Shown here: one piece after another, positions 18,101 through 39,874 of the stretch
Layout of the letters: each line of letters starts with the position of its first letter
How positions within the stretch are numbered: the stretch's first letter is position 1
Sequence record: OM103162.1
DNA: 48,366 bases
Reading direction: 5' to 3' (one strand)
Source: Klebsiella phage KpnP_VR7901
Notes under the pieces: generated by a model
The model's database searches: none
Seen by the model: only the letters and a program-made list of their open reading frames with translations
Told to the model about the DNA's origin: nothing
Position numbers and translations under genes: made by a program

Positions 18101-18102
18101 GA

Positions 18103-18259: not shown

Positions 18260-18323
18260 CGCTTAGTCTATTCCTAAGAGCCAAGATATTTGGACCACCC
18301 CCTGTTAAATAAGTTCTGTAGAG

Positions 18324-19382: not shown

Positions 19383-19862
19383 CTACGTTCTGCTCCATCG
19401 TGTAGTCTCCCCACCACTGCCAGTGTCTGTCTTCATGGCCTGTACAACAGCATCTAAAGGGTCGCAATCTGTGGATGTTAAGTAGTGAAGCGCCACAGTT
19501 CCTCCGCTCCCAATAGCCCACGGGCAGCCATCTGGAATCTCTACAAAATCTAGAATAGGGCTCTCCTCTTCAGCCTTAGATACAAACCAAGCTGTTCGCT
19601 CTGTAACAATAATGGCGGAGAACGTGTTAGGTGTGTCTAATGAAGAGGTGACTAACAGCCCTTCCCCCAACGCATACTCCAATACAGCCTTCTCAGAGAG
19701 ATAGCCGGCCAAAGCAAAGGCCAATACTTTCTCCCCCTGCATTGAATAGCTGCGTTCTTCACAGTCTACAATCTTTGGGAAGTTGTCAGTGACAAGTTGA
19801 TTCCCACGAGTCATGCGGCCATCTGCTGCTAATACACCATTGCGGAATGCGATAGTTGTCAT
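19383..19862 (-). CDS. HslV-like Ntn-hydrolase peptidase (proteasome beta-like)
   Basis: N-terminus MTTIAFRNGVLAADGRMTRGN aligns with HslV [22 protein letters not shown] (Thr1 nucleophile). Conserved AIGSGG motif near the C-terminus. Confidence 0.6.
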   Translation of the reverse strand: MTTIAFRNGVLAADGRMTRGNQLVTDNFPKIVDCEERSYSMQGEKVLAFALAGYLSEKAVLEYALGEGLLVTSSLDTPNTFSAIIVTERTAWFVSKAEEESPILDFVEIPDGCPWAIGSGGTVALHYLTSTDCDPLDAVVQAMKTDTGSGGETTRWSRT

Positions 19863-19863
19863 A

Positions 19864-20097
19864 TTACTTCTCCACTTGCCACTTATAGGATTTAGCTGGG
19901 GCTTCCAGCTCTACAGCACGCTTAGCACTCTCCAATATCTCAGCCATGTCCTGAGCCTTGTCCTTATGGCCCCTCAGCCCTGCACAGAGGGCTTTCTTGA
20001 CTAGATGCTGCAGGGCAGGGTTAGTTACATTAAAGGCGGCCAGTACATCGTAAACATCTAATGTGACGCCCTTACATACTCGGTTATACTTACTCAT
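19864..20097 (-). CDS. hypothetical protein
   Basis: The ORF track starts at 20136. ATG 20097 (MSKYNRV...) has the better RBS (GGGAGAAGAAAGATG). Confidence 0.4.
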   Translation of the reverse strand: MSKYNRVCKGVTLDVYDVLAAFNVTNPALQHLVKKALCAGLRGHKDKAQDMAEILESAKRAVELEAPAKSYKWQVEK

Positions 20098-20225
20098 CTT
20101 TCTTCTCCCTCTGCATCCACATCTTAGCCATTTCATAATAGACGAGCGCTCCTTTCTCGTCTCCTCGGTCTAAACATTCCTCTTGTTTCCTGCGGCAATA
20201 TTCTACAGGGGTTTCCTCTTTATTC

Positions 20226-20390
20226 AGCAACTTTATCCTCCACACGAACAATTGCCACCTGTAAACTGTCTACGCCGTCATAGCTTTCTTGCTTGAGCTG
20301 ATTAACAACGCTGGCGGCTGCCTTAGCAAACTTCTCAGCCACTTCATCACTCACACCTTCGAATTTAAAAGACAGAACATAATTAGACAT
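20226..20390 (-). CDS. hypothetical small protein (54 aa)
   Basis: Hand-translated MSNYVLSFKFEGVSDEVAEKFAKAAASVVNQLKQESYDGVDSLQVAIVRVEDKVAE. RBS GGAGGTATGTATG. Confidence 0.45.
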
Positions 20391-20446
20391 ACATACCTCC
20401 GATAAGAATAAACATAGTAGTGAACACAGAGAACATAAGCAGATTA

Positions 20447-20683
20447 TTAATGAGCTGTCGCATCTACTTCTGCCCCCACCCGCTTCTTAGTTTCATCAGC
20501 ATCTTTCTGAATGGACATGAGCATGGCTGCTACAGAGAGGCGCTCTTGTTCAGAGAAGTTCTCAAAATAGCTGCGTGTAGCTCGTTCCCCCTCTTCTTGA
20601 TGGATTGAGACAGCGGTGACGGCACGATTGTACGCACGGAGAATAGGATTCTCAATATCATTAAATAGTTCAGGTTTTTTCAT
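20447..20683 (-). CDS. hypothetical protein
   Basis: 78-aa ORF on the minus strand in the gene-dense early/middle block. Confidence 0.45.
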   Translation of the reverse strand: MKKPELFNDIENPILRAYNRAVTAVSIHQEEGERATRSYFENFSEQERLSVAAMLMSIQKDADETKKRVGAEVDATAH

Positions 20684-20723
20684 TACACTTGGTCCTTATT
20701 ATTTTTATTTGTATCGGACGAAA

Positions 20724-21086
20724 TTATCTACCTTTAGGGAGTGTTAGAGCTTTCTCTAAAGGCCACTTCTTTAATCTCTTTTTCATTGCGGTAAAGCTAA
20801 GACCCAGTTCATTTGCCCAGTCCATAATAGTTTTTGTTCCACCATTAAAGCAAATAAATACGTTGGTCCTTCTATTTCGTGCTTGCTCGTGGGGTGTGGC
20901 CCATTTGCAATTTTCAGGGGAATACCCTCCGTTGTTGTCAATACGTTCTAGTGTAAACCCGTCGGGTTTTAACCCCATATCCTCTAAGAAATTCTGGAAG
21001 GATTCCCACCTAGTGCATATAGATATTCCCCTACCACCGTGAGTATAATACCGGTGAGAGTTTGGATTTAGACAGCGCTGCCTCAT
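20724..21086 (-). CDS. HNH endonuclease (phage YGGRGI...NCRWAT-type)
   Basis: RCLNPNSHRYYTHGGRGISICTRWESFQNFLEDMG...RIDNNGGYSPENCKWATPHEQARN. The start was moved to ATG 21086 (RBS GGAGGG) to avoid overlap with the upstream gene. Confidence 0.65.
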   Translation of the reverse strand: MRQRCLNPNSHRYYTHGGRGISICTRWESFQNFLEDMGLKPDGFTLERIDNNGGYSPENCKWATPHEQARNRRTNVFICFNGGTKTIMDWANELGLSFTAMKKRLKKWPLEKALTLPKGR

Positions 21087-21102
21087 GTCCCTCCAGCACT
21101 GG

Positions 21103-21471
21103 TTAGTTCTTTTCAGCCTTAATTCTTCTTCGTTCAACCCCCTCCTCCTTAGACTTAATTGCGTGGCAAGTTTTACACAGAACTTGTAATCCATCTGCTT
21201 GGCAGAACATCCTCTTAATAACATCATCCCAGGAAATAAATCCAGTCAGTGGAATTACGCTTTCAATGTGATCTACTTGAACCTCTTTAGCTGGAAATAC
21301 CCCATGGCAGCGGGCACACTCATAGTGCTCAGCCAGACGCCCTGTGGAGTCATTGACCATCTTACCACGTTTCGCGGCATTTAACACCTCATATTTCGGC
21401 GGCCACCTAGTGGTGCCTTTACGTAATGTAGATTTAATGAATGATTGGAATTTGCTCTCTGTCCAATTCAT
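21103..21471 (-). CDS. HNH endonuclease
   Basis: CxxC...VDHIESVIP...LQVLCKTCHAIK zinc-finger/HNH signature. Confidence 0.65.
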   Translation of the reverse strand: MNWTESKFQSFIKSTLRKGTTRWPPKYEVLNAAKRGKMVNDSTGRLAEHYECARCHGVFPAKEVQVDHIESVIPLTGFISWDDVIKRMFCQADGLQVLCKTCHAIKSKEEGVERRRIKAEKN

Positions 21472-21947
21472 AGAGACCTCCTTTCATTCTCACGTTGATA
21501 GGCCTCCACAGCAGCTTCTAAGGTATCGAAAGAGCCCAGAGATTTTCTGATACCATTGGAACTAATCCTTGCCCGGTATTTATTGCTTTTCTCGTCCCAG
21601 GTCACTCCCTTACCGCCAGTAGAGTTATTCTTGAACAACCCAGTGTTCCAGCTGTTTTCAACGGGATAAACCTCTCTCAGATTCTCCGGCCTGTTATCCT
21701 TGCGGTCCCTGTTTATGTGGTCTAGGGGCAAGGTGGGGAACTTCCCATAAGTAATCAGCCACACTAACCGGTGCGCTAGATATGATTTTCCATTCAACCG
21801 GATATGCAAATACCCATCTTCCCTGAGAGTACCAGCCTCCTTATTGGACATTTTAGCATCAAACCAAGGGGAGCCTCTAGGCTTCCAGAAAAGAGACCCG
21901 CCTTCCAATCGCAGAACTTCCTTGGCCTGTTGCGCAGTTATTGTCAT
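21468..21947 (-). CDS. HNH endonuclease with AP2-like domain
   Basis: LDHINRDRKDNRPENLREV (HNH_3-like), then KYRARISSNGIRKSLGSFDTLEAAVEAY (AP2). Confidence 0.6.
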   Translation of the reverse strand: MTITAQQAKEVLRLEGGSLFWKPRGSPWFDAKMSNKEAGTLREDGYLHIRLNGKSYLAHRLVWLITYGKFPTLPLDHINRDRKDNRPENLREVYPVENSWNTGLFKNNSTGGKGVTWDEKSNKYRARISSNGIRKSLGSFDTLEAAVEAYQRENERRSL

Positions 21948-22147
21948 TTATTCTCCATATTAGGGTGAAGGGCTTCTTGTAACCAGCTTGCTATAGCTTC
22001 TGCCTCTTTATTGCTAAAGCATAAGCTGCTCTTTCCCAGACCGTCGTTCATTTCAATTTCAAAAGGGTATTCAAAATCTCCACTCTCTTTGATACTGAGA
22101 TTGATAATTTCATTGTCCCATTCATCTTTAAAGATTAAAGGTTTCAT
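21944..22147 (-). CDS. small protein, C-terminal -MENK (LENK-family variant)
   Basis: 67 aa. Ends ATGGAGAATAAATGA with the stop overlapping the next ATG. Confidence 0.5.
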   Translation of the reverse strand: MKPLIFKDEWDNEIINLSIKESGDFEYPFEIEMNDGLGKSSLCFSNKEAEAIASWLQEALHPNMENK

Positions 22148-22264
22148 TTGTTCTCCAAATCAATTAGGTTTTCATCCCACTCTACGACATGCAGCATTCG
22201 TTCTCTGTCTAGCCGAACTCCTATATTACTGACTTCTCCCCTTTTGTGAAGTGTCCCGAGGAAA

Positions 22265-23065
22265 TCAATCACCTCGGACCACCGGCCTAGTCCAAAATAC
22301 CGGATTTCCCTCATCATCTGCCCTCCGAATCATCCACGCTAATTGTGCTTGTTCATAAAGACGCTCTTCAGCCTCTTCACCGTATTTGTTAGTGTACGCC
22401 TCCAACACCCTCTCGTACATCTCTGCTTCTGTTGTTGCTCCGTCAAGGATGTTGAATGCTCGAATGGGACCACACCCTTGCAAACCATCATACGTATCTG
22501 TGGAGTCACCAGTAAGTAGCTGTGAATAGAAGAAAAGAGCACCAGTTCCTGTGAGCTTCTTAGGCCCCTTGAGGACGAGGCTCCCTATTTCTTCCACCCA
22601 TGCTGGCCCCCAACTGCCTTGTCTGCCGCACTCCCAAGTGTAATGGAAGCCTGGGCATTGCTTCAAATCCTTATCACGGCTACAGATTATTGTATCTCTA
22701 AACTCTAGGCGCTTAGTTTGTTCGATGCATAGGGCATCATCTGCCTCCATCCCATCTACCACCACTGCTCCCCATTGAGCTTGTAAATAAGCTTTAATGT
22801 AGGAATAGTAATGCGGCTTGATTTGTTTACGATTTCCTTTATACTCACGGCTCTTAGCCACGGCATGTCGGAAATTACCCTTACCCGTGATGAACAGTTT
22901 AGGAGGAGCTGTAGCATATACAGCTGCACAAATCTCCTTAATACGCTCATCAACCATTTCATTCACTTCTTCAACGGATTTTAAAATCAATCCTTCTTCT
23001 GTCTTCTGTTGAGCGGCAAAGCCAATCTCGTAAAGAAGAATGTCTGCGTCAATAAGAGGAATCAT
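22265..23065 (-). CDS. 5'-3' exonuclease / flap endonuclease (T7 gp6 / PolI 5'-exo family)
   Basis: N-terminal IDADILLYE acidic cluster and GMEADD motif characteristic of the FEN/5'-exo family. Confidence 0.65.
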   Translation of the reverse strand: MIPLIDADILLYEIGFAAQQKTEEGLILKSVEEVNEMVDERIKEICAAVYATAPPKLFITGKGNFRHAVAKSREYKGNRKQIKPHYYSYIKAYLQAQWGAVVVDGMEADDALCIEQTKRLEFRDTIICSRDKDLKQCPGFHYTWECGRQGSWGPAWVEEIGSLVLKGPKKLTGTGALFFYSQLLTGDSTDTYDGLQGCGPIRAFNILDGATTEAEMYERVLEAYTNKYGEEAEERLYEQAQLAWMIRRADDEGNPVFWTRPVVRGD

Positions 23066-23141
23066 GCATCACCATTTTATTATATAGGGCTTCCTTGCCC
23101 GTTGTCATTATCTATCTAATTAAAAGCCCCAGTTCTCTTCA

Positions 23142-23870
23142 TTACCACGGATTGTCATCGTCTTCTCCTTCTGTCACATCAGGCTCTACAGGCTCCTGTA
23201 CGGGCTTCTCAGCCACTTTCTCCTCCTTCTTGACCTGCCCTGCAGCCTGCCCCTCTAAAGCTACCTGAAGCTTGCTTCCTTCGAAATCCAAGTTAGCCTT
23301 AATCCGCTCCTGAATCCACTCAGGGAATGAACGGAAGATATCAAGGTCTGGCTCATCCAGAGAGAACACCTTAGGCTCATTCTTAAGTTCTGCCACCATC
23401 ATGCCCTTCATTGGCTTGGAGACATTCCCCACCTTAGCACTGCCATTCTTCTTATGCGCTACAGTTACTGCACAAGGAGCTGTCAACACTTTCCCCCAAT
23501 CTCCTTGATAGAGGGAGAAGTCTGGGTCAAATGCCTTCATACGCTTAGTGGAAGTGGCAAGGTCACTGTCCAATGCGTATAGAGGGAACTCCTCTGACAG
23601 CCAACGCGGCTTATCCTCCAGCTCATTACCTGCTTCATCCTTCATGAACTCTGTAGTGAATTCATAAGTGAGGCGCAGTAGGTGAACAGGAGCTTTATCA
23701 TATGCCACCTCAAACTTCTTAGTTGCGTCATTCCACACTTCCTTGTGGTGACGTCCCATGTCAATCACTTGGGCCACACGGCATGGATAGTTGTCCACTG
23801 GCAATTCTTCTTGCTTAACGCGGTTAGCTGCTGGACGTTTCGGAGTAGTAGCGGGTGCTTTTAAAGCCAT
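23142..23870 (-). CDS. putative single-stranded DNA-binding protein
   Basis: 242 aa with an acidic C-terminal tail ending EGEDDDNPW (compare the DDDIPF-type SSB tails). Sits in the replication cluster. Inference only. Confidence 0.4.
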   Translation of the reverse strand: MALKAPATTPKRPAANRVKQEELPVDNYPCRVAQVIDMGRHHKEVWNDATKKFEVAYDKAPVHLLRLTYEFTTEFMKDEAGNELEDKPRWLSEEFPLYALDSDLATSTKRMKAFDPDFSLYQGDWGKVLTAPCAVTVAHKKNGSAKVGNVSKPMKGMMVAELKNEPKVFSLDEPDLDIFRSFPEWIQERIKANLDFEGSKLQVALEGQAAGQVKKEEKVAEKPVQEPVEPDVTEGEDDDNPW

Positions 23871-23891
23871 GTGTAATACCTCTTTTTATTA

Positions 23892-24265: not shown

Positions 24266-24699
24266 TGTTTCCTCCAGTTTCTTTTCCGCCGATTAATTGT
24301 GGCTCTGTCTAAATTAAATATCTCACACAGCTGTGTGGTATCAGTTATCCCTAGCTCCAGGGTTAACAGAACCGCAGCTCTTCTGTCGTCACATCTTTCT
24401 CTATTAGTTTTGGCTTTATGTTCTGAGATGGGTAGGAGTTGTAGGTGCTGAGGGTTTTGACAGGCCCTATTTCGACACATGTGGTCAACCTCATAACCAT
24501 CTGGGATGGCTCCTATCTCAGTCTCATAAACGTATCTATGGTACATTGTCATCCTAGGTCTACTTTCAGATGGCCCTCTTCTGTCTAAGACTCGCAGGTA
24601 TCCATCCTTGTTTAAGCAGTGGCTTGTGCATATAATACAGCCAGAATCCAGTTTAATAAACTTTAATTCACGCATCCCCATTAGTGTGTCTCGCTCCAA
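24262..24699 (-). CDS. HNH endonuclease with C-terminal HTH
   Basis: VDHMCRNRACQNPQHLQLLPISEHKAKT HNH core. Overlaps the 3' end of the DNA polymerase gene by 19 nt. Confidence 0.6.
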   Translation of the reverse strand: MERDTLMGMRELKFIKLDSGCIICTSHCLNKDGYLRVLDRRGPSESRPRMTMYHRYVYETEIGAIPDGYEVDHMCRNRACQNPQHLQLLPISEHKAKTNRERCDDRRAAVLLTLELGITDTTQLCEIFNLDRATINRRKRNWRKQ

Positions 24700-26615
24700 T
24701 TAATTCCGATATCTGCCTCTCCTTCTTGTGGAACCTCCAATTTATAAAATTTACTCGACGCCGCGATACTAGCCTCCGATATTTTTGCAACATCCTCCGC
24801 AATTTCCCTCCGACATTCCACTTGGAACTCATCGTGTATCCACCCAACTATCTCGAAATCCACTCCTCGTTTGTACTTAGCTTCGAGCTTCTTATTTAGG
24901 AAGTTATAAGCTCCTGACATGAATATAGCTTCATCGGATTGAAGGGTGTAAACCAACAACGTATGCTCAAGTTTAATGAAGATTGGGGCCCCATCGAGTC
25001 CATTAATCCATCCGTCATAGTACTCTAATTTTCCCCAACGGTTCATCCTTCGTTTAGCATTACCTCGCCATTCAGCTGTCAGGCGGTCAATCAAGGCTTG
25101 CTGTGCTGGGAATACCCTGCCGAGAGCGGCACGAATCTCCTCGCCAACTTCCTTACTCCCCCCTGCCATCCTACCTAACTTGTTGTCACTGGCCCCAAAT
25201 TTCCAACCGTAATTAAAGTTTTTAGCTGTACCACGGTTGATTGGATGCAGTTTGTATCTGGCCAAGACTTCGTTTATTGCATCACGGGCTAGGGAGTGAC
25301 CATCTGTCCCTTCATCCTTATCCCCCTCTAACATCATTTTAGTAAAGTCTGCACTACCGGCTCTTGCTGCGAGCATTCGGTCTTGGCAACTCGCCGCGTC
25401 TGTCCCCACTAACACCCATCCAGGTCGGGCTATGAAAGATCTTCGCATTTGATGACCAAAGAACGCATTGGAGTTGGGAACGTTGACAACACCAGCGTGC
25501 TTCATCCTTCTGGTGTCGGCTATCCCCGTAACTCGTGCCGAGATTCTTCCATCAGGTCTCATCCTTGCCAACCAACCTTCTAAATTAGAACGACGATGTA
25601 CAGCTTTAGCACGCTTGGCATATAACCTTCCTGCCTTTCCTTCCACTCCCGGAAACTCTCCATCCTTTGGCATCTTAGGAGAGCGTTGGTTCCCTTCATC
25701 ATCTAAGTTCCATTCAGCAGGTTCCCACCCCTGAGACAGCATCCAATCTTTTACTTCAGCAGAGCTTCCTAAATCTATCGGGCGAAAAGCTATCCTAGTA
25801 AAAGGCCCACAAACAGCCCCAGAAGATAAAAGGCAAGCACCTCCCACCCCGTCCAAATTTTCTTGTCCATAATGTTTCTCCACAGATGCGGAATACTTCC
25901 CGCTCTTCATGAAAGGTTTACGAACATAATTGTATTCACCGTCTTTCTTAGTTTCTAGTATATCCATTGTTAGGGGAAGATATTTAGCTAATACGCGGTC
26001 AATACGTTCTATCCAATGTGTTAACAGCTTAATGCTCTTATGAATATACGCTTCATCCAGAAGCCACCCAGCTTGCTCTTGCTTCCACAGATTCTCCCAG
26101 AGAGTGAAAGTCATTAGATGGGCATCTCTCCAATTCTGCCCCTTCCCTTCTTTCTTTAGAGCGTGATATGTAGCAACGTTAATGCGGACATCTTCCTCAC
26201 ACCGGTGTAATATCTCTGGTGTATATTCATCCCAATATTCTATCTCTGGTTTATCAATGCCAACTCGTACACCCCATGCATACAAGCCATGCACCTTCAT
26301 CGCCTCCTTCTTATTCTGAGCTTGTGGGGGAGCTGTGCGGTGGGGATTCTGTAAGCGTGACATGAGGAGGGTGTCTACCTTCTTACCAGTAAACTTATAC
26401 CCCAATACTTTCTCCACTACGGGAATGTCGTATTGTAGGATATTGTGCCCTATCCAAATATCAACAGTCTTCAGAAACGCTACAAACTCATCCATCTGCG
26501 TATTGTCGAAGCGTCTTACATCTTTACCATCTAGGGTTGACGCTACGGCACAATGCAGCTTAGTCACTGTATCGTAGAGGCCATTAGCCTCAAGGTCAAT
26601 CACCCAAGGTGTCAT
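24681..26615 (-). CDS. DNA polymerase, family A, with 3'-5' exonuclease domain
   Basis: Exo I VIDLEANGL. Motif A GTDAASCQDRML, motif B RGTAKNFNYGWKFG, motif C GWIHDEFQVEC. Confidence 0.85.
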   Translation of the reverse strand: MTPWVIDLEANGLYDTVTKLHCAVASTLDGKDVRRFDNTQMDEFVAFLKTVDIWIGHNILQYDIPVVEKVLGYKFTGKKVDTLLMSRLQNPHRTAPPQAQNKKEAMKVHGLYAWGVRVGIDKPEIEYWDEYTPEILHRCEEDVRINVATYHALKKEGKGQNWRDAHLMTFTLWENLWKQEQAGWLLDEAYIHKSIKLLTHWIERIDRVLAKYLPLTMDILETKKDGEYNYVRKPFMKSGKYSASVEKHYGQENLDGVGGACLLSSGAVCGPFTRIAFRPIDLGSSAEVKDWMLSQGWEPAEWNLDDEGNQRSPKMPKDGEFPGVEGKAGRLYAKRAKAVHRRSNLEGWLARMRPDGRISARVTGIADTRRMKHAGVVNVPNSNAFFGHQMRRSFIARPGWVLVGTDAASCQDRMLAARAGSADFTKMMLEGDKDEGTDGHSLARDAINEVLARYKLHPINRGTAKNFNYGWKFGASDNKLGRMAGGSKEVGEEIRAALGRVFPAQQALIDRLTAEWRGNAKRRMNRWGKLEYYDGWINGLDGAPIFIKLEHTLLVYTLQSDEAIFMSGAYNFLNKKLEAKYKRGVDFEIVGWIHDEFQVECRREIAEDVAKISEASIAASSKFYKLEVPQEGEADIGINWSETH

Positions 26616-26800
26616 TTATTCTCCAGTGTAGGGATGTATTCTTCCCATTCGTTTTCAAAGAAACCAGTGTCTAGAGAGTTTACAGAAGCAAAGCCATGTT
26701 CATCAATAGCGTCTGCATTTAGAACAGTTCCTGCTTTTAACACTCGGTTGTTATAATGCCATCCTAAATTAACATCTACAGTTAGAATGATTTCTTTCAT
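26612..26800 (-). CDS. small protein, C-terminal -TLENK
   Basis: 62 aa. Ends CTGGAGAATAAATGA, overlapping the polymerase ATG. Confidence 0.55.
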   Translation of the reverse strand: MKEIILTVDVNLGWHYNNRVLKAGTVLNADAIDEHGFASVNSLDTGFFENEWEEYIPTLENK

Positions 26801-29407: not shown

Positions 29408-29853
29408 TACTCCACCTCCTTTAAAAGGTTGAAAAATTCATTATAGGCATCTTGCGCCTCCTCTTTAGTGTTAAACACTCCTATATAGACGAAACGGTCA
29501 TAGTATGTCAGGAAAGCTTGCCACTTATTTCTATGTTTTCTGAATCCCGGGGAGTTATCCTTACGATTCAGTTGGTTATCCCTTGGCGAGACAACCCTTA
29601 GATTTTCGATACGATTGTCTGTTTTATCCCGGTTTATGTGGTCAATTTGCATTCCTTTAGGGACAGGTCCGTTATGGAGCTCCCATACACATTGGTGAAC
29701 ACTTCTTGTCCTGCCTTGGATTGTTATGTAGCAATACCCGTTCTTGTTGTTGAGATGCCCCTTCACAACACAATCGGCTTTGGCTTTGGTCCCTCTATTA
29801 ACCTTATTATAGAGTTCCCCTTCCTTGTAATAAAGTAAATCTGATATACTCAT
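29407..29853 (-). CDS. HNH endonuclease with AP2-like domain
   Basis: QIDHINRDKTDNRIENLRVVSPRDN, then NKWQAFLTYYDRFVYIGVFNTKEEAQDAYNEF. Confidence 0.6.
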   Translation of the reverse strand: MSISDLLYYKEGELYNKVNRGTKAKADCVVKGHLNNKNGYCYITIQGRTRSVHQCVWELHNGPVPKGMQIDHINRDKTDNRIENLRVVSPRDNQLNRKDNSPGFRKHRNKWQAFLTYYDRFVYIGVFNTKEEAQDAYNEFFNLLKEVE

Positions 29854-29891
29854 CTTGTCTCCTTTATAATTATTGTTATGGAGAATATTTA

Positions 29892-30119
29892 TTATTTATT
29901 TTCTAGTGTGAAATGATGCTTAAGCTCCACCTTATCGTAATCAACCGACCATACTCCATCGTCAACCCACTTTGGGCCTTTAAACCATGGGGAGGTTGAG
30001 GCATCATCTATGTACAAAACAACTTCATCTCCAATTTTAAAATACCTACCACCATAATTGTCCTTAATTATAAATACATCCCCCTCTCTCCATCCTCTAC
30101 TCTCACATGGTGTCATCAT
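29892..30119 (-). CDS. small protein, C-terminal -TLENK (CTA GAA AAT AAA TAA)
   Basis: 75 aa. Contains a GDVFIIKD / IGDEVVLY SH3/KOW-like pattern. Confidence 0.55.
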   Translation of the reverse strand: MMTPCESRGWREGDVFIIKDNYGGRYFKIGDEVVLYIDDASTSPWFKGPKWVDDGVWSVDYDKVELKHHFTLENK

Positions 30120-30328
30120 TTATTCTCCAATTCAACATGGACAGGTATTAGTTCCCACCCCACCTCTGTAAGACTCTCTACTGAGTGAGTACCAGTCCCC
30201 CATTTCCCGGATGGGAAGCGAACGTGTCCAGTTTTAATATTAAAATAAAATCCCTCAAGGTCTCTGTATACCATCTGGTGTGTAATTTCATCCATTGAAC
30301 ACCTCCTGAAAGCGTTGCTTATAACCAT
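30116..30328 (-). CDS. small protein, C-terminal -ELENK
   Basis: 70 aa. TTG GAG AAT AAA TGA overlaps the next ATG. Confidence 0.55.
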   Translation of the reverse strand: MVISNAFRRCSMDEITHQMVYRDLEGFYFNIKTGHVRFPSGKWGTGTHSVESLTEVGWELIPVHVELENK

Positions 30329-31058
30329 CCAGCGTAGTGCCTGACAGGCCCGGAGCCGTGTTCACCTCTAACACATAATACTTATCTTCACGAGCATTAA
30401 AGATGAGGTCTACAGCCCCAAAATCAAGTCCTAATGCAGCTACAGCCTTAACAGCCTCCTCAGACGCTACAGGAGAAGCTACAACGCCTTCACGAGCGAA
30501 GATAAACCCACCATCAAGGTTACGCACTTGCCAGTTCACAGCGTCGTCTGGGACGTCACGTTTACGTGCTTTACGCTGAATGTCCACCACTTGCCCCATG
30601 AATACATGGTAACGATATTCTTCCTGCTTTTTCACATAAGCAGTGTAGAGAGGAGCCAGTACAACGGCGTCGCTGTTATCACAAATAACAATACCAGCCC
30701 CGCTATGCCCATTAAGGACAGTGCGGCATACAACGCTTGAGTTAGGAGTATTTTGAAGATATTCACATGCGTCAGCCTTACTTGTGAAGAATGGGGGGAT
30801 AGTGACACCGGCTTCTTGGAAAAGTTCAAAACTTTTTAATTTATTTGAGGCTTTACGAATGGCCTCTGGCTTGTTGAGGATGCGTTGACATGCCATCACT
30901 TGGTCAGGCAATGTGCCAGCTCCCCAATTGATGATAGCTTTTCCCATTCCCCCACGGAACTTGCTGTTGCCATGCTTGATGCGTTTTACGTTCAACGCTT
31001 GAGATAGGAGCTTAGCCCCTTCAGAATGCGGATTGTGTGAATAGATGTACACTTTCAT
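30288..31058 (-). CDS. ATP-grasp ligase (RimK/GshB-like)
   Basis: C-terminal ATP-grasp signature DKYYVLEVNTAPGLSG and a Lys/Gly-rich N-terminal nucleotide-binding region. Confidence 0.65.
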   Translation of the reverse strand: MKVYIYSHNPHSEGAKLLSQALNVKRIKHGNSKFRGGMGKAIINWGAGTLPDQVMACQRILNKPEAIRKASNKLKSFELFQEAGVTIPPFFTSKADACEYLQNTPNSSVVCRTVLNGHSGAGIVICDNSDAVVLAPLYTAYVKKQEEYRYHVFMGQVVDIQRKARKRDVPDDAVNWQVRNLDGGFIFAREGVVASPVASEEAVKAVAALGLDFGAVDLIFNAREDKYYVLEVNTAPGLSGTTLDGYKQRFQEVFNG

Positions 31059-31117
31059 TTATTTATTCTCCAGAGAAAATGGAGCTAGCATGAGGGTGTA
31101 AAAGGGCAGAGAGGTCC

Positions 31118-31258
31118 TCATGAGATTCCCCCTTTCCCATCATCACGCCTGAACCAAAAAAGATTTTCATCAATTTTTTTTTCAACTGTAGCACAAGACT
31201 TCTCCCAAGAGCTGCCTTTTAAATTGATGAACTGTACTCTGTCACCTACATTGTACAT
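31118..31258 (-). CDS. small protein (GDxV paralogue, 46 aa)
   Basis: The track ORF 31118..31363 overlaps the upstream gene by 104 nt. The internal ATG 31258 (MYNVGDRVQF...) sits 1 nt after that gene's TAA. Confidence 0.4.
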   Translation of the reverse strand: MYNVGDRVQFINLKGSSWEKSCATVEKKIDENLFWFRRDDGKGGIS

Positions 31259-31259
31259 A

Positions 31260-32066
31260 TTACCAATCCCCCAAATAAGCAAATTGTTGTACACGACGAA
31301 TGCTGTCGTAGACAGACAATTCATATTTCTCTTCCCAAGGGATGTCCTTAGCGTATTTACCAAGAATCATCTTGTAGAAACCTTCTGGCCGCAGGTCACT
31401 CACTGAATAGACAACAGCGGTTGGGTTGTCAATCTCACGCGCCAGTCCTTTCAGATGTTGCAACAGCCCGCACCACCATTCAATAGCCGCTAAATCCCCA
31501 TCAGAGCGCCACGCTCTAAACTCAAGGGAGCCATAGTCCCCCAGAGCTTTAACGTTCACAGAGGCATAGCGGAGGTCGTCAGTGTGCAGTACAGACAGGT
31601 TTTGCTCTTTAATTGCAACACCCAGCATGTCAATCAAATATTCAGCGTCACACGCTCTCAGGCAGAACAGGTTGCCAATACGATGCTGCCCGCAGGTGTT
31701 CACCAGAATGTCTTCCACCACCAGATATAGAGACAGGAAGTTGAACAACTGCGTCACTGTCAAATCCCCACAGTTGATGTGAACATGCACACCAGCATTA
31801 GGGCTGTCTTTAATAACAGCTTCATTGCTTTTCCAAGCTTCTTCCATTAACGCTAAGGCCATCTTCGTTTCATTAAATGGAATGGGCTTCCGCAATACAT
31901 ATTCAAAGCTCTCTCCGCGTAAAGAGGGGTCGTTCTCACTCTTCCACACACCGTCTTCTACACGAGGGAGGTTAGTCCCTTCTGCCTCAATCTCAATACC
32001 AATATGGTCGGTGAGACGGCTCTGGAGCTTCAACACATCACGCACTAATTTTCTTTCAAAGGACAT
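31260..32066 (-). CDS. carboxylate-amine ligase, GCS2/YbdK/PafA-like amidoligase (copy 1)
   Basis: GIEIEAEG (compare YbdK GIELEMQV), ESFEYVL, NAGVHVHINCGD (compare QHVHVGCASGD), GSLEFRAWRSD (compare GTVEVRVMD). Confidence 0.6.
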   Translation of the reverse strand: MSFERKLVRDVLKLQSRLTDHIGIEIEAEGTNLPRVEDGVWKSENDPSLRGESFEYVLRKPIPFNETKMALALMEEAWKSNEAVIKDSPNAGVHVHINCGDLTVTQLFNFLSLYLVVEDILVNTCGQHRIGNLFCLRACDAEYLIDMLGVAIKEQNLSVLHTDDLRYASVNVKALGDYGSLEFRAWRSDGDLAAIEWWCGLLQHLKGLAREIDNPTAVVYSVSDLRPEGFYKMILGKYAKDIPWEEKYELSVYDSIRRVQQFAYLGDW

Positions 32067-32306
32067 TTATTTATTCTCCAACACTATATTTTCATGCTTC
32101 AATTCAGTATAGTGAACAAAATACCCGGAGGTATCTGTATGTTCGGCCAGTCCAAAGTTATGGTGCCCTTCGTAGAAGTTTTCAAACACAACTCCTAGGA
32201 ATCCGCTGTCCTCCCCTCTGGGTCCAAAACACACTACCTTACCCACCTTCCTCTTAAGAAAGCTTGTATGCCCAGTAAATTTAACACGATCCCCTACTTT
32301 AAACAT
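32067..32306 (-). CDS. small protein MFKVGDRVKF..., C-terminal -IVLENK
   Basis: 79 aa. TTG GAG AAT AAA TAA ATG junction. Confidence 0.55.
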   Translation of the reverse strand: MFKVGDRVKFTGHTSFLKRKVGKVVCFGPRGEDSGFLGVVFENFYEGHHNFGLAEHTDTSGYFVHYTELKHENIVLENK

Positions 32307-32887
32307 AGCGCTAACACCTCTTGCAGATAGAAACGTTCAGGCATGAGCTTAACACTCTGGTCTCCTACATACCCCACTACATCTCCACGATACATAAGAC
32401 ACAGCTCATCTTCTTTATCAGCTACAGCCCATTCACGATGGAAAGGGACAATCTTAGAAGCTCCAGAGCGTACAGCTTGGAATGCTTCTCCAATGTCAGG
32501 GAAGTCCCCTACAATCGTCTTAGCGACGCTTTTACTGAAAGGGCTCACCTCACTACGTCCCTGTCCAAATAAACGCTCTATGGGCTTCTCAAGGGCGTTA
32601 AAAGCGAAGAAGTTCTCCTGTGTCAGCCCTTGCTTGTATTTACGGACAGGTTTACGCATTGAGAAGAATACACGGCCACGGTCATCAATGACATAGCCCA
32701 GCTTAGCTGCATCAGGGGCCAAGTTGAGAGCTTCAATGCGTACAGAGCTGCTACGTCCTGTCAGCAAATCCTTTACAATCACCTTGTCCTTGCTCTCTGC
32801 TGCCTGAACAACAACAGGACGCTTCTCCCACATCACTAATGAATGACGCAGGCGAAGCTCTACATCTCTTTCGCTTTCGTAATACAT
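32294..32887 (-). CDS. hypothetical protein
   Basis: 197 aa, no recognisable motif. Embedded in the ligase cluster. Confidence 0.45.
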   Translation of the reverse strand: MYYESERDVELRLRHSLVMWEKRPVVVQAAESKDKVIVKDLLTGRSSSVRIEALNLAPDAAKLGYVIDDRGRVFFSMRKPVRKYKQGLTQENFFAFNALEKPIERLFGQGRSEVSPFSKSVAKTIVGDFPDIGEAFQAVRSGASKIVPFHREWAVADKEDELCLMYRGDVVGYVGDQSVKLMPERFYLQEVLALCLK

Positions 32888-33087
32888 TATTTATTCTCCA
32901 AGCTGGGAATATAAACATCAAATTCACATTCCCTTTCATCAAAATTGCAAATACCGCCTTTCGGGAGGTCTACAGTAATCAGGTCCCCGGGAAGCACTTC
33001 GAAATACCCAGACATGGCTTCTTTGCACACCTCGCAATTGCCACATGTGGTTTTTATAAGCCTAACCTTATCTCCAACATTAATCAT
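32887..33087 (-). CDS. small Cys-rich protein MINVGDKVRL..., C-terminal -PSLENK
   Basis: 66 aa, CGNCEVC plus C..C (possible zinc ribbon). TTG GAG AAT AAA TAA TG junction. Confidence 0.55.
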   Translation of the reverse strand: MINVGDKVRLIKTTCGNCEVCKEAMSGYFEVLPGDLITVDLPKGGICNFDERECEFDVYIPSLENK

Positions 33088-33899
33088 AATACAATCCCCG
33101 CTGGGAGAAGCAGCCCCTCTTCCTTGATGATGCGGGAAGCAGATGCCTTATCCGAAGTGTTGACAATACGTTGAGCTTCATCCCCGTATTTATCGAACAG
33201 GGAAACGCCCCGCTCAATACGCTCCATAGCGTCCATAGATGCCTTGTATGCCCAACGCTTCAGGTTGTCATCCTTCAGCCACTGATTGGAGAGAGTTCGG
33301 TATTCCATGCCATATTTCTTAGGACGGAATGCACCAGCTTTGCCGTACAGCTCACGACGTTTAGTGTCACTGTCGTAGAACAGAGAAGGAAGGCCCAGAT
33401 AGAAGTCCAGCTCCCGCACTTTAGCCGCCAGCCAAGCAATATAATCTGCATCATTCACTGGAGCATCATTACCAGTTTCAGGCAAGCCGAAGTGTATATG
33501 ACCAGCAGCAGAGCGGAACGGGAGTTCCCCGTTAGGACGTGGGTTAACATCGACAGTGTATGCGTCATAATCAGGGTCACAGCCAAGCTCCTTAGCTTCT
33601 TCTGGTTGAGCACGAATGTATTCAAAGCCGAAGTCTGCTACCGGGATGCACTCCAGCTTGTAGTCCGGCACCATGCTTGCCAAGATTTCCATGACGCCGT
33701 TGATATTGTCCATCCACGCCTGCTCACTATCTGCCGCGTCGATGTTAAATTCAAGGGCCATGCCATCCACTTGGACAGCACCACGATTTACTTTGAGGGG
33801 GTCGTGTTTACTGCCTTTGATGAGGCCATGAGCACTCACCAGTTTACCGTTACGAGAAACAAAAATTTCCGGGTCAGCACCAATTAAGATTTTAGACAT
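33084..33899 (-). CDS. carboxylate-amine ligase, GCS2/PafA-like amidoligase (copy 2)
   Basis: IGADPEIFV, GMALEFNI, AGHIHFGLPE, GMEYRTLSNQW: the same four-motif pattern as copy 1 and YbdK. Confidence 0.55.
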   Translation of the reverse strand: MSKILIGADPEIFVSRNGKLVSAHGLIKGSKHDPLKVNRGAVQVDGMALEFNIDAADSEQAWMDNINGVMEILASMVPDYKLECIPVADFGFEYIRAQPEEAKELGCDPDYDAYTVDVNPRPNGELPFRSAAGHIHFGLPETGNDAPVNDADYIAWLAAKVRELDFYLGLPSLFYDSDTKRRELYGKAGAFRPKKYGMEYRTLSNQWLKDDNLKRWAYKASMDAMERIERGVSLFDKYGDEAQRIVNTSDKASASRIIKEEGLLLPAGIVL

Positions 33900-33926
33900 G
33901 ATATATTCCTATGTTTGATGATAGCA

Positions 33927-35231
33927 TTAATTTGATAAAGTTTTTACACGGCATCCGGGAAGGAGGCGGCTACGCTGTTCACTAGTTAGCCCCTTGATAT
34001 CTTCCCAACAGGTCTTACAACAAATGTGGGCATCAGGAGAGGTGTAATACTCCTTCACTAACGTGCGGCAATACGAGCAACCCACTTTATAATTGAACTT
34101 ATGAAACTTCACCCCCGCTGGGAGCTGTTCCTCCTTCTTGCTTTCAGCTAAGGCAGCCTCTTCTAAATCCTCTAGCGTATAATAACATTTATCCGCTGTA
34201 TAGATAGAGAGGTATAGCCCAGCCTGTCCTGAATAATTCACTTTAGCAGTGAACACCATTTTATCTTCTGCCCACATCTCAGTGACTAAATCGTCATGAA
34301 CATCCAGCCTTACTTGAGTGATGCGGATAGGAACATCTTTGAGAGTTTTACCGATGATGTCTACATAATTGGCACCGTTCTGTACAAAATCACGGATGGT
34401 GTCCACTGTAAACTCTACAAAGTCACCGGTGTTTACGCCCTCTCTGTCGAGCCATTTGTCTTCTTCTCCCCAGCTTCTGCTGTAATTTCCGTAATAGCTT
34501 CCCGACCACTTTGGGGCTACATACGGCTCAACCTTAGTGGTCGTCCAGTCCACAATGTCGGTTGCTTTTTCAGGGAGAGTAAATTTATAGTGCATATCAA
34601 TCTGCACTTCACGGGGGGGTTCATCAAGCTTTAAGTCTTGACGCCCACAGGCTGCATGAATCATCCAGAATTCAGAAGCCCACACCAGAGTGCGTCCTTT
34701 GTTAGCTGTGCTAAACCACAAAGGGCGCTCTTTATTACGCAGGAAGTTAACAGTGTTGTCTGTCTTATCAATCCACGTTAAGGCGGCTGCTCCGTTTAAC
34801 TTGCCCCACAGAGAAGCTACGCCATTCTGGTTAAGCTCAGAGAATGCAGCTTGGCTATCCACTGCGTATTTCTCTTGCTCGAACAGGGTGTATTGGGAAA
34901 GAAGACTGCCGTTGTGTGCCCCAATAATATTAGGGAATTCAAATGGATGGGCATTCTCCTGAATGATGGCCCCCTTAGTGGCCCAACGATTGTGACCAAT
35001 AAGGATGTGATGCTTCTTAGCCATCAAATCAGAGAAGCCTTTCAAGTCCATGAAATCAACAGCGTTAAGCTTGTCCTTAAACACAGCTGTCTTGAATTCA
35101 TTCCCAATCTTATGCAATGAAGCAATGCCAGTGGAATGCTTCCCACGGATAACATCTAACAAGAGAAGGTCTTTAAACACTTTCTCTTCTTTAAAGGAGA
35201 TGTCTCCTGCCAGTCCAACGAGTCCGCAAAT
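33927..35231 (-). CDS. class II (Ntn) glutamine amidotransferase domain protein with Cys-rich C-terminal domain
   Basis: CGLVGLAGDIS (compare GlmS MCGIVG), LIGHNRWATKGAIIQENAHPF (compare [21 protein letters not shown]), GAHNGSL (compare HNGIIEN). The catalytic Cys codon (35228..35226) lies upstream of the first canonical start (GTG 35180). The only in-frame candidate start is ATT 35231..35229, 7 nt after a GGAGGA RBS. Confidence 0.55.
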   Translation of the reverse strand: MCGLVGLAGDISFKEEKVFKDLLLLDVIRGKHSTGIASLHKIGNEFKTAVFKDKLNAVDFMDLKGFSDLMAKKHHILIGHNRWATKGAIIQENAHPFEFPNIIGAHNGSLLSQYTLFEQEKYAVDSQAAFSELNQNGVASLWGKLNGAAALTWIDKTDNTVNFLRNKERPLWFSTANKGRTLVWASEFWMIHAACGRQDLKLDEPPREVQIDMHYKFTLPEKATDIVDWTTTKVEPYVAPKWSGSYYGNYSRSWGEEDKWLDREGVNTGDFVEFTVDTIRDFVQNGANYVDIIGKTLKDVPIRITQVRLDVHDDLVTEMWAEDKMVFTAKVNYSGQAGLYLSIYTADKCYYTLEDLEEAALAESKKEEQLPAGVKFHKFNYKVGCSYCRTLVKEYYTSPDAHICCKTCWEDIKGLTSEQRSRLLPGCRVKTLSN

Positions 35232-35262
35232 AGTATTATCCTCCGAAAGCCTGTGGCTTTGC

Positions 35263-35517
35263 TTATTTATTTTCTAAAGACAGATTGAAGAATTCAAGGT
35301 CGTCCTCATGGAACCACCAACCCCAGTCTATACCAAATTCTGGAGCGTGTAGGTATACGCTGTTGTATCCGATTCTTTTAACTTCCATGGGAAATCCTGA
35401 CACAGCAGCGCTCATGTTTCTCCCTCCGTCGCCACATTTAATTACTGTGAGGGAGTCGTCCCACATATCCAGAGGTATAGTGCAATATACAATATCCCCC
35501 TCTTTAAACTTGGGCAT
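35263..35517 (-). CDS. small protein MPKFKEGDIVY..., C-terminal -LSLENK (TTA GAA AAT AAA TAA)
   Basis: 84-aa ORF. A GDxV/SH3-like paralogue. Confidence 0.55.
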   Translation of the reverse strand: MPKFKEGDIVYCTIPLDMWDDSLTVIKCGDGGRNMSAAVSGFPMEVKRIGYNSVYLHAPEFGIDWGWWFHEDDLEFFNLSLENK

Positions 35518-36154
35518 ACAGCTCCTCCAGTTTATCGAAATACCATTGCTGACACGGGTGGTCTGAACTTACAAATTCAGGATGGGGTTGATAACAGAAC
35601 GCTTTAGTAGATGGGTAGAAACAAGCCTCCACTTCCACATCTGTATCTACATCCACTACTTCCCCCGGCTCTTCATGTGCAGGGGTCATCATGAATTTAC
35701 GAGAGCTGCGCATAACACTGCTCTTGCCCAACAAAATCCCGCACTCCCCGACAATCATCATCTGGTGGTGGAGAGAGGACACCGGGACCAGCTTACCAGT
35801 CTCTACATCCAGCATGTCATGAGTGCCATGAATGCCATGCCCCTTAACATCCTGATACATGTTACCACCAGACAGGGCATTGAGGAGCTGCCCGCCACGA
35901 CATACACCAGCAAGGAACTTGCCCTTCTGCTTTCCTTCTACAAAGGCTGCATACTCTTCACGGTCACGGCCCGGAGAGGTGTAGGTGGTGGGGTGTTCAT
36001 GTTGATTGTAGAACTTGGGGGAAATATCAGCTCCCCCCGTGAATTGTACAATGTCGGCCTCGTCAATGCTGTCTACGATTGTATAACCGCGCTTAGTGTA
36101 CATTGAATGGAATTGATGGAAGAAGGAAGTGCCTACGATGAATACTTTTTTCAT
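35504..36154 (-). CDS. class I glutamine amidotransferase-like / peptidase C26 (gamma-glutamyl hydrolase-like)
   Basis: Nucleophile elbow GVCRGGQLLN and C-terminal YQPHPEF (the vQfHPE motif). Confidence 0.6.
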   Translation of the reverse strand: MKKVFIVGTSFFHQFHSMYTKRGYTIVDSIDEADIVQFTGGADISPKFYNQHEHPTTYTSPGRDREEYAAFVEGKQKGKFLAGVCRGGQLLNALSGGNMYQDVKGHGIHGTHDMLDVETGKLVPVSSLHHQMMIVGECGILLGKSSVMRSSRKFMMTPAHEEPGEVVDVDTDVEVEACFYPSTKAFCYQPHPEFVSSDHPCQQWYFDKLEELYAQV

Positions 36155-36349
36155 TTATTTGTTCTCCAGGCTGAGGTGATGAATGGATAAGTGATGTTGA
36201 TTGTAGTGGGCAGCGCCTCCTCCCTCCCATTCTACTCTATATTCATAATCCCTTCGGGATTTATAATCCGTACTAGTTATTACCCCGACCTTTTTACCGA
36301 AGTTATTGCTGGGAAATTTAAACAGAGCTAGTTGCGTTGGCTCTACCAA
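36155..36349 (-). CDS. small protein, C-terminal -LSLENK (CTG GAG AAC AAA TAA)
   Basis: 64 aa. Stop followed immediately by the ATG of the GATase I gene. Confidence 0.55.
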   Translation of the reverse strand: MVEPTQLALFKFPSNNFGKKVGVITSTDYKSRRDYEYRVEWEGGGAAHYNQHHLSIHHLSLENK

Positions 36350-36373
36350 TCCCCTACCTTAAACAAGCTCATA

Positions 36374-39869: not shown

Positions 39870-39874
39870 TATTT

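Follow-up and report, generated by a model that had tools for sequence, protein, structure and literature searches.

The genome of Klebsiella phage KpnP_VR7901 (record OM103162.1, 48.4 kb; "the window" below means this whole stretch as analysed) is that of a podophage of the family Zobellviridae, genus Citrovirus, and shares a nucleotide identity of ~92% with two Klebsiella phages, vB_KpnP_Klyazma (also Zobellviridae, Citrovirus) and vB_KpnP-Asterion. Early genes, together with those for replication and metabolism, occupy a minus-strand block at ~18.3-44 kb, and structural genes lie in plus-strand blocks. Within the minus-strand block, a series of small genes encode products that all end in [L/M]-E-N-K. 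We conclude that these ends, hereafter the tail, are a genuine C-terminal short linear motif on small (55-100 amino acids, aa), otherwise unrelated, fast-evolving and readily swapped proteins. The same 12-15 nucleotides (nt) appear to be used twice, once as RNA and once as peptide.

Eleven tail genes in one genome

A six-frame scan finds [L/M]-E-N-K at the ends of eleven minus-strand open reading frames (ORFs), ten of them intact small genes and one a frameshifted remnant. We name the genes by their stop edges: 21944, 22144, 26612, 29892, 30116, 31059, 32067, 32887, 35263, 36155 and 39869 (Table 1). An earlier inspection of the letters alone, which we call the sequence-only reading, had listed ten tail ORFs. 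All ten are present, but gene 22144 had been overlooked, "39875" is correctly 39869 and "~31062" is 31059, and gene 39869 lies outside the span 19383-36349 that had been assigned to the set; the remaining positions were right. One of the ten, an ORF of 20 aa, had been taken for a protein in its own right and is only the C-terminal piece of gene 31059. The proposed consensus -[S/T]LENK is likewise too narrow in one respect: [L/M]ENK is present in all eleven, and Ser or Thr at position -5 (counting the last residue as -1) in only seven.

The enrichment of this ending far exceeds chance. The six frames contain 318 ORFs with 40 aa or more; LENK is the C-terminal 4-mer of nine of them, and every other 4-mer occurs at most twice. 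The 11-nt core GGAGAAYAAAT has nine minus-strand copies, all at the ends of tail ORFs, and a single plus-strand copy. The latter, at 15026-15040, encodes the N-terminus M-E-N-K of a gene on ATGGAGAATAAAT and is the same 11-mer as in a tail cassette; being a gene start, it was rejected as a tail and is probably a coincidence. Also rejected was a plus-strand ORF ending KKENK at 16536, a variant, by a 1-nt indel, of a gene that ends ...RKKGK in relatives.

The bodies of the tail proteins are real genes under purifying selection. The ratio of non-synonymous to synonymous substitution rates (dN/dS) spans 0 to 0.63 overall, with values of 0 to 0.07 for the 21944 protein against its orthologues, 0.52 to 0.58 for 22144, 0 to 0.04 for 26612 and 0.27 for 32067. 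Two genes read as damaged in the window. Gene 31059 is broken by a 1-nt indel into an 81-aa ORF (31118-31363, beginning MYNVGDRV...) and the 20-aa ORF (31059-31121, ending ...APFSLENK); its intact orthologue, in an IMG/VR relative (locus L011), has 100 aa. The 36155 copy is a 64-aa ORF starting at TTG, a 1-nt deletion near 36350-36375 having removed the N-terminus MSLFKVGD.

Table 1. Tail genes of the window and the enzyme operon in which most of them lie. "Coupled" means that the stop of the tail gene overlaps or abuts the start of the gene named.
Feature	Coordinates	Strand	Remarks
Small protein, 67 aa, ...HPNMENK	21944-22147	-	Cassette ATGGAGAATAAATGA; stop overlaps start (ATGA) of HNH endonuclease gene 21468-21947
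Small protein, 57 aa, ...LIDLENK	22144-22317	-	Cassette TTGGAGAACAAATGA; coupled to gene 21944
Small protein, 62 aa, ...YIPTLENK	26612-26800	-	Cassette CTGGAGAATAAATGA; coupled (ATGA) to DNA polymerase gene 24681-26615
Small protein, 75 aa, ...HHFTLENK	29892-30119	-	Uncoupled tail CTAGAAAATAAATAA
Small protein, 70 aa, ...VHVELENK	30116-30328	-	Cassette TTGGAGAATAAATGA; coupled to gene 29892
Frameshifted small gene	31059-31363	-	Cassette CTGGAGAATAAATAAATG; feeds ATP-grasp gene
Small putative SH3-like protein, 79 aa, MFKVGDRV start, ...ENIVLENK	32067-32306	-	Cassette TTGGAGAATAAATAAATG; coupled to Amidoligase_2 gene 31260-32066
Small protein, 66 aa, ...YIPSLENK	32887-33087	-	Cassette TTGGAGAATAAATAATG; coupled to conserved 197-aa operon protein gene 32294-32887
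Small protein, 84 aa, ...FNLSLENK	35263-35517	-	Uncoupled tail TTAGAAAATAAATAA; GGAG lost synonymously
Small protein, predicted SH3-like (DUF4314/MIB_HERC2-type), ...HHLSLENK	36155-36349	-	Cassette CTGGAGAACAAATAAATG; coupled to Peptidase_C26 GATase gene 35504-36154
Small protein, 59 aa, ...HPPITLENK	39869-40048	-	Cassette CTGGAGAATAAATAATG; coupled to 65-aa gene 39672-39869
Amide-bond operon ("gamma-glutamyl/amide-bond")	30288-37765	-	7 of the 11 tail genes interleaved
RimK-like ATP-grasp	30288-31058	-	Pfam PF08443 RimK, E=8e-7; directly downstream of a tail cassette
Amidoligase_2	31260-32066	-	Pfam match
197-aa operon protein	32294-32887	-	Conserved
phiEco32-type COOH-NH2 ligase	33084-33899	-	Pfam COOH-NH2_lig
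Class II GATase	33927-35180	-	Pfam GATase_6
Peptidase_C26 GATase	35504-36154	-	Pfam Peptidase_C26
463-aa operon protein	36374-37765	-	Operon member

Constraint on the nucleotides and on the peptide

The cassette YTGGAGAAYAAATRA places GGAG 5, 8 or 9 nt ahead of the next ATG, and its stop overlaps or abuts the downstream start in the forms ATGA, TAATG and TAAATG. As RNA, it would thus offer a Shine-Dalgarno sequence (SD), an A-rich spacer and a stop set against the next start, and so couple translation of the downstream gene to that of the tail gene; judged by this layout, the cassette is predicted to be a working translational-coupling junction. Among 125 tails from ten genomes, orthologous copies within which are not independent, 104 are coupled. 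GGAG is intact in 96 of these 104 and in 4 of the 21 uncoupled tails (Fisher 1e-11), and this retention with coupling and decay without it indicate that the ribosome-binding site (RBS) layer is real. A scan for promoters and terminators gave no signal at the tail cassettes above shuffled expectation.

The tail is nevertheless not a general coupling device. In the window it is carried by 10 of ~30 small genes and by none of the 21 genes longer than 110 aa (p=0.003), and the other overlapping junctions differ both in the frame of the SD and in the ending, which is WRKQ, KEVE, RRSL or LEKKK. The last of these endings resembles a diverged relative of the cassette: the 119-aa protein at 40045-40404 ends ...QLEKKK on TTGGAGAAGAAGAAATGA, with Lys replacing Asn. 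We also considered a programmed frameshift or read-through that would fuse the tail gene to its neighbour and rejected it by inspection: the next gene does start in frame 0 or -1, but no slippery heptamer is present, and cassettes encoding Asp or Glu at the end are not slippery either. At one junction, the HNH endonuclease gene 21468-21947 stands directly behind a tail cassette, which serves as its RBS; relatives have other genes at that junction.

The peptide is constrained in its own right. With orthologue clusters defined on tail-trimmed protein bodies, the minimum numbers of non-synonymous and synonymous changes are 0/8 at Asn(-2), 1/4 at Glu(-3) and 65/19 at positions -5 to -7. When the clusters were rebuilt without any condition on the tail, all members kept Asn(-2) in 20 of 23; the other three comprise a frameshift variant, an antisense artefact and a pseudogene. 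Variation respects the codon. Tails ending in Asp in Erwinia phage Pecta use GAT and GAC about equally and never GAR, those ending in Glu in Citrobacter phage CVT22 and the relative L013 use GAA or GAG and never GAY, and the Asn codon is never AAR, though A would suit an RBS spacer. Within the window we recover every codon variant listed in the sequence-only reading (CTG, TTG, CTA and TTA; GAG and GAA; AAT and AAC; stops TAA and TGA). Per genome there are 8-11 different cassette haplotypes, with no linkage among their synonymous sites, and we therefore rejected homogenisation by gene conversion as the source of the uniform last residue.

Tails that have lost their coupling separate the two layers. 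At 29892 and 35263, AGAA replaces GGAG and LENK is retained, as the sequence-only reading had noticed. In the first of these, the change consists of two synonymous G→A substitutions, and the HNH endonuclease gene 29407-29853 that follows has its own RBS 38 nt downstream; the CVT22 orthologue is likewise uncoupled and ends LENE. The second is separated from the class II GATase gene by an 82-nt gap, and its positional equivalents in CVT22 and the relative L024 end SLINE and SLLNE, with Asn-Glu retained and Glu(-3) gone. Directly after gene 35263 stands a short hairpin, AAAGCC-NNN-GGCTTT (35246-35260), which may be a transcript end or a processing site between this gene and that for the class II GATase. 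Where uncoupled tails lack GGAG, it is lost by two third-position G→A changes and never by GAG→AAG, and at three orthologous positions uncoupled alike in phages with terminal Lys and in CVT22/L024, Asn and the genome's own last residue are still there.

Amino-acid selection on the tail is thereby shown to be independent of coupling. The replacement of Glu(-3) at one uncoupled position indicates that Glu is mostly a by-product of the RBS and that Asn-X is not. It is mainly the RBS that maintains Glu(-3) and the third base of codon -4, whereas protein-level selection maintains Asn(-2) and the final residue; in L013 the amino acid at -4 is free, yet its codon ends in G if the tail is coupled. The sequence-only reading had argued for selection on the peptide beyond an overlapping RBS and had proposed to weigh synonymous against non-synonymous differences. 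Synonymous variation is indeed present, and the claim is upheld by the Asn(-2) count, the synonymous loss of GGAG and the codon-respecting last residue. We therefore think it very probable that selection acts on the tail peptide.

Relatives carry the tail with a last residue of their own. The commonest C-terminal 4-mer is LENK in Klyazma (11) and Asterion (13), LEND in Pecta (16; DNA polymerase 68% identical to the window's) and LENE in CVT22 (17, plus one LENK; polymerase 55% identical). Salinivibrio phage CW02, from another genus of the Zobellviridae, has 8-10 small ORFs ending L.P..LEEN[V/I/L/A], and relatives from IMG/VR and metagenomes show x-E-N-E (L013), hydrophobic-x-N-K (L012), LENE (L024), MENV and VVND/IVNV. 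In Citrovirus and Salinovirus phages alike, the genes belong to the block of middle genes. No C-terminal 4-mer is enriched in this way in Vibrio phage VPMCC5 (polymerase 50% identical). A profile search of 1.84 billion representative proteins returned 47 further small, single-domain, DUF4314-like metagenomic relatives of one tail family, 31 of them with Asn at -2 (LENE, LENK, LEND, MENV, MRNK, MEENV and others), a fraction somewhat inflated because the profile included the tail. Word-indexed homologue searches with the 21944 and 29892 proteins found close relatives only.

Across lineages, the sole universal residue of the tail is Asn at -2. The last residue is uniform inside one genome and different between genomes (K, D, E or V). 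Judged by the ATP-grasp, primase and polymerase genes, L013, with terminal Glu, is nearer to the window than is L012, with terminal Lys; the last residue has thus switched more than once, and tail type is not a simple phylogenetic marker. Relatives also differ in detail. In Pecta, Gln stands at -5 (QLEND) in 11 of the 15 listed LEND tails, making the motif one residue longer there, and a 268-aa exonuclease of the same phage ends LENE, the sole large protein seen with a tail. An N-terminal motif, A-P-E/S/L-W-A-T-H (for example MMQAPEWATH and MEAPEWATH), recurs among the tail-bearing small proteins of Klyazma (L001), L002, Pecta (L004) and CVT22 (L005), and is found in none of the ten in the window.

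Protein bodies and the neighbouring operon

Once the last 8 residues are trimmed, phmmer divides the 81 tail proteins of six genomes into 51 components and places the ten window proteins in ten separate clusters, so that paralogy of the set, as described in the sequence-only reading, is not detectable. Pfam and PHROG scans of these ten gave no named function and three weak PHROG matches to families of unknown function. The bodies are heterogeneous in AlphaFold2 models too, with at least two predicted folds. The model of P0005, a 72-aa orthologue of the 36155 protein, is an SH3-like barrel (predicted local distance difference test, pLDDT, 87.5) whose last strand comprises residues 62-64; the final eight residues are modelled as coil outside the barrel, and confidence falls at the very end. 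Its best match in the PDB is YorP, a protein of the SPbeta prophage (E=3.9e-3, template-modelling score 0.72). Among 29 aligned family members, matches are weak, 11 to MIB_HERC2 (best E 1e-3) and 7 to DUF4314 (best E 6e-4), and the window's own 36155 copy has no Pfam match. In contrast, the 21944 protein is modelled as four strands and a C-terminal helix (46-60), with the tail residues 63-67 below pLDDT 50. Of the folds that had been suggested for these proteins, SH3 is found in one model; the other is a sheet of four strands plus a helix, and neither model is ubiquitin-like.

Bodies of the small genes are exchanged as cassettes between relatives. At the junction where breakpoints were examined (32902-33077), the window and Klyazma cease to be homologous at 33077 and become so again at 32902, just 5' of the tail Leu codon. 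The 32887 body, 174 nt in the window, corresponds to 472 nt with two different small genes in Klyazma (18019-18490). The flanks of the swap are 95-99% identical, and the breakpoints lie just past the start codon and at the 5' edge of the tail cassette.

Most tail genes are interleaved with an operon of ATP-grasp, amidoligase and GATase genes (Table 1), an arrangement of enzymes known from LUZ24-like phages and phiRIO-1 (PMC4819975). The operon is found in every tail-bearing lineage with enough sequence, and VPMCC5 has neither operon nor tails. An HslV-family peptidase homologue, with a PHROG match and without a Pfam match, lies at 19383-19862. The Klebsiella phages have this homologue, as does Pecta (45% identity), and it was undetected by tblastn in CVT22, CW02, VPMCC5, Pseudomonas phage Ty, Vibrio phage KIT05 and Pseudoalteromonas phage HP1. 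The sequence-only reading had described the block as PafA-like amidoligases, an ATP-grasp ligase and an HslV-like peptidase, and had linked the tails to these enzymes. The ATP-grasp enzyme, the amidoligases and the HslV-like peptidase are there; the amidoligases match the Amidoligase_2 and phiEco32-type COOH-NH2 ligase families, and a Pfam scan of the operon enzymes gave no Pup-ligase or ThiF match at E<=0.001.

Three results speak against the link itself. The operon occurs in Ty, KIT05, HP1 and PaP3, in which we found no enriched C-terminal motif; the HslV-like gene is missing from tail-bearing CVT22 and CW02; and residues of the enzymes do not co-vary with the tail. Amidoligase_2 has six columns that discriminate between tail classes, including the charge-complementary N32R and E211A, but control partitions in which L012, L013 or Pecta was swapped give 4-7, which leaves no signal of co-variation. 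The ATP-grasp enzyme, primase and polymerase have no columns that co-vary with tail type. By tblastn, the 197-aa and 463-aa operon proteins appeared to be specific to tail-bearing phages, and were dropped as candidates when an iterated hidden Markov model (HMM) search found homologues in the tail-less Ty and KIT05.

Possible roles of the tail

We propose that the tail is a docking or recognition motif for one lineage-specific reader protein, a proposal to which we would give an even chance. As peptide, the tail would present a hydrophobic residue, usually Glu, the invariant Asn and a last residue X with its free carboxylate, on an extension modelled as disordered. Such a common docking peptide would plug many small binding domains into one reader, whose preference for the terminal residue would have shifted between phage lineages. 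Several results weigh against this proposal. No reader for the tail was found: tblastn combined with an iterated HMM comparison revealed no protein of at least 60 aa restricted to tail-bearing genomes, and no enzyme residue tracks tail type above control partitions. The charge reversal from K to D or E across 10-18 genes is hard to reach by co-evolution. All observed tail polymorphisms are transitions, also the commonest class of mutation, so that the synonymous-only pattern is partly confounded with mutation bias, and many of the tail counts include orthologous cassettes that are not independent. Disorder of the tail is taken from AlphaFold2 models, of which that of the 21944 protein derives from a shallow alignment of 3 sequences and reaches a pLDDT of only 76.

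The enzymes next door suggest a different role, as a ligation, conjugation or degron handle. The tail would then be a substrate of the RimK-like ATP-grasp enzyme or the amidoligases, by addition to its alpha-carboxylate or by an Asn-dependent transpeptidation with the last residue as leaving group, or else a degron for the HslV-like peptidase. Seven of the eleven tail genes in the window and 8 of ~10 in CW02 lie inside the ligase operon and are coupled to its enzymes, and the joint occurrence of operon and tails, with the joint absence from VPMCC5, points the same way. RimK-family ATP-grasp enzymes modify protein C-termini (S6, LysW), and an invariant penultimate Asn beside a variable last residue would fit leaving-group chemistry. 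However, this handle would have to be reconciled with tail-less operons in four phages, with two tail-bearing phages that lack the HslV-like gene, with the want of any Pup-ligase family match and with co-variation no greater than in controls. Tail genes also precede genes for the DNA polymerase, an HNH endonuclease and other small proteins, and a last residue that may be K, D, E or V offers no common side-chain chemistry. We consider a handle of this kind unlikely. A fuller version makes the tails handles of a phage system for protein tagging or C-terminal modification, in which ...Asn-X-COOH on a variety of small carrier or adaptor proteins would be the recognition site of an enzyme particular to the lineage; this enzyme might extend the alpha-carboxylate in the manner of RimK, let the Asn expel the last residue and ligate a target by transpeptidation, or deliver the variable SH3-like bodies to a common machine. 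Such a system would be a viral equivalent, with many carriers, of the chemistry of ubiquitin/Pup or LysW. This version seems to us quite unlikely. None of our tests gives a tag or handle an advantage over simple docking. Inheritance from one expanded paralogous family, with the tail as the structural C-terminal strand of a single fold and its overlap with the RBS a coincidence, is highly improbable: many members do begin M-x-x-V-G-D and look SH3-like, of the DUF4314/MIB_HERC2 type, and duplication is suggested by tail genes that stand in tandem, two or three in a row, but the trimmed bodies form 51 components, the tail is borne by at least two predicted folds, and it is modelled as coil of low confidence beyond the last strand or helix. 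Moreover, 16 of the 47 small DUF4314-like relatives lack Asn at -2, and the tail is therefore not a constant feature of that fold.

Two further explanations need no function for the mature tail. In one, the codons, tRNAs or nascent residues at the stop tune the hand-over from termination to re-initiation. The order of SD, 3 nt, last sense codon and stop has the spacing of the prfB frameshift site, and 104 of the 125 tails are coupled; Asn, Lys, Asp and Glu would each be read by a single tRNA species, so that synonymous-only variation is expected here too. Yet at three orthologous positions Asn-X, with the last residue proper to the genome, persists in uncoupled tails, large genes of the window with the same ATGA or TAATG overlaps never use the tail, and the motif in CW02 reaches ~10 residues upstream (L.P..LEENV). 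Klebsiella, Citrobacter and Erwinia are all Enterobacterales, whose ribosomes should be near-identical; a ribosomal requirement should not, therefore, be for K in some of these phages and for E or D in others. We regard tuning of termination as improbable. In the other explanation, the cassette acts purely at the nucleotide level, as an optimal RBS and coupling module that would also be a recombination linker, or the operator of an RNA-binding regulator, in the shuffling of small-gene cassettes, and the peptide is a by-product kept by descent. The 15 nt are indeed highly conserved, and GGAG is kept up only ahead of a start. Close relatives have non-homologous small genes at one and the same junction, where the breakpoint coincides with the cassette's 5' edge; HNH genes have been inserted right behind cassettes, and codon -4 of L013 ends in G when coupled despite a free amino acid. 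Against this stand the codon-respecting variation (Pecta has only GAY, CVT22 and L013 have only GAR, and Asn is never AAR), the avoidance of GAG→AAG when the SD is lost, and the many unlinked haplotypes per genome, which argue against conversion. Uncoupled copies with a decayed GGAG have still switched from K to E, only 4 nt away, and the position of the cassette is fixed to the stop and not to the start, from which GGAG is 5, 8 or 9 nt distant. A purely nucleotide-level role is accordingly distinctly unlikely.

Among known systems, the tail is nearest in kind to terminal peptides that several proteins share for targeting or docking, and to gene junctions with dual coding. It is like other translationally coupled junctions (ATGA/TAATG) in having GGAG 5-9 nt before the start, overlap in 104 of 125 cases and decay where no start follows. 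Ordinary coupled junctions, however, have their SD in any frame and no fixed peptide, whereas here the frame is constant, the Asn and last codons outside the SD are held at the amino-acid level, and the tail survives uncoupling. In SD spacing and stop/start overlap it matches a nucleotide-only RBS cassette; in conservation, which is not of the RNA alone, it does not. Lambdoid phages have linker sequences at mosaic junctions that are thought to act as DNA. The tail shares with them a short conserved sequence at a swapped gene boundary, with the breakpoint at the cassette edge (at one junction), but its conservation follows codon positions and its last residue is uniform per genome at the protein level. 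The T4 capsid-targeting sequence and encapsulin cargo-loading peptides are ~10 aa long and have a known reader, the scaffold or shell; the T4 peptide is N-terminal and is cleaved off. The tail is similarly a short terminal peptide on unrelated small proteins of one element, on an extension modelled as flexible, and differs in being a motif of 3-5 residues ending at a free carboxylate, on genes of the replication and metabolism block instead of late genes.

The well-known C-terminal handles (ubiquitin GG, Pup GGQ/E with PafA, S6 with RimK, LysW with LysX) have one dedicated carrier each, a beta-grasp fold in ubiquitin and a disordered protein in Pup; ligases of the E1 or PafA/Dop family join these two tags covalently to lysines of their targets. 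The tail is like these in being a conserved extreme C-terminus on small proteins encoded beside ATP-grasp enzymes and carboxylate-amine ligases. Unlike Pup and ubiquitin, it has no GG and no constant acidic end ([L/M]ENK, LEND, LENE or LEENV), and it is borne by dozens of unrelated bodies, among them the modelled SH3-like barrel and sheet-plus-helix. A ligase of the RimK/LysX type is encoded alongside (30288-31058), but the acidic Glu end of that system is replaced by Lys in the window, its close Klebsiella-phage relatives and L012; Glu or Asp is found in CVT22, L013, L024 and Pecta, and Val, Ile, Leu or Ala in CW02. Nor do ligase and tail always co-occur across genomes, given the four tail-less phages. 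C-terminal degrons such as ssrA (...LAA) are also short C-terminal signals on many proteins. Unlike in ssrA and other C-degrons, whose non-polar last residues are recognised by ClpXP, Tsp or FtsH, the last three residues here are Glu-Asn-Lys and the tail is polar or charged in most lineages; no variant resembles a ClpXP or Tsp motif known to us, and the sole phage peptidase candidate, the HslV-like protein, is missing from two tail-bearing lineages. A subset of the tail proteins, with gene 36155-36349 and less firmly 32067-32306, probably has an SH3-like domain of the DUF4314/MIB_HERC2/YorP type. That domain is widespread (1594 representative matches), often multidomain and generally without an Asn-X end. 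We found no description of the tail motif in the searchable literature, and know of no close precedent for a C-terminal tail of 3-5 residues common to many small and unrelated proteins of a phage, for an invariant penultimate Asn, or for a last residue that changes in concert from one lineage to the next.

Should the tail prove to be a recognition peptide, each genome would encode 10-18 interchangeable small proteins reporting to one reader, a modular system for host takeover or regulation unlike any described for phages. The last residue, switched in concert across unrelated proteins in each lineage, would be a natural co-evolution experiment usable for locating that reader. The locus is also an unusually clean case of dual coding, in which naturally uncoupled copies separate selection at the RBS from selection on the peptide. 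In practical terms, the motif flags real small genes that pipelines annotate as hypothetical, and hydrophobic-x-N-X-stop superimposed on GGAG is a signature with which metagenomes can be searched.

Other features of the genome were noted in passing. Free-standing HNH endonuclease genes lie in the minus-strand block at 29407-29853, 20724-21227 and 21468-21947 (and 40045-40404), and their presence and position vary among the window, Klyazma and Asterion. The protein at 40045-40404 has PHROG matches to "decoy of host sigma70" and "Srd anti-sigma factor" as well as to HNH-type families. Compared with close relatives, the window has three 1-nt indels in short homopolymer runs, at 36350-36375, ~31118-31125 and ~16520-16536 (for example GGGGATTG against GGGGATTTG), which truncate the N-terminus of gene 36155, split gene 31059-31363 and change the end of the plus-strand gene at 16536, respectively. 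These could be assembly errors or genuine pseudogenisation. Lastly, the DNA polymerase of the IMG/VR relative L012 is 76% identical to that of CVT22 and only 56% to that of the window, whereas its ATP-grasp enzyme and primase are closer to those of the window; these affinities point to mosaic exchange of replication genes within the genus.

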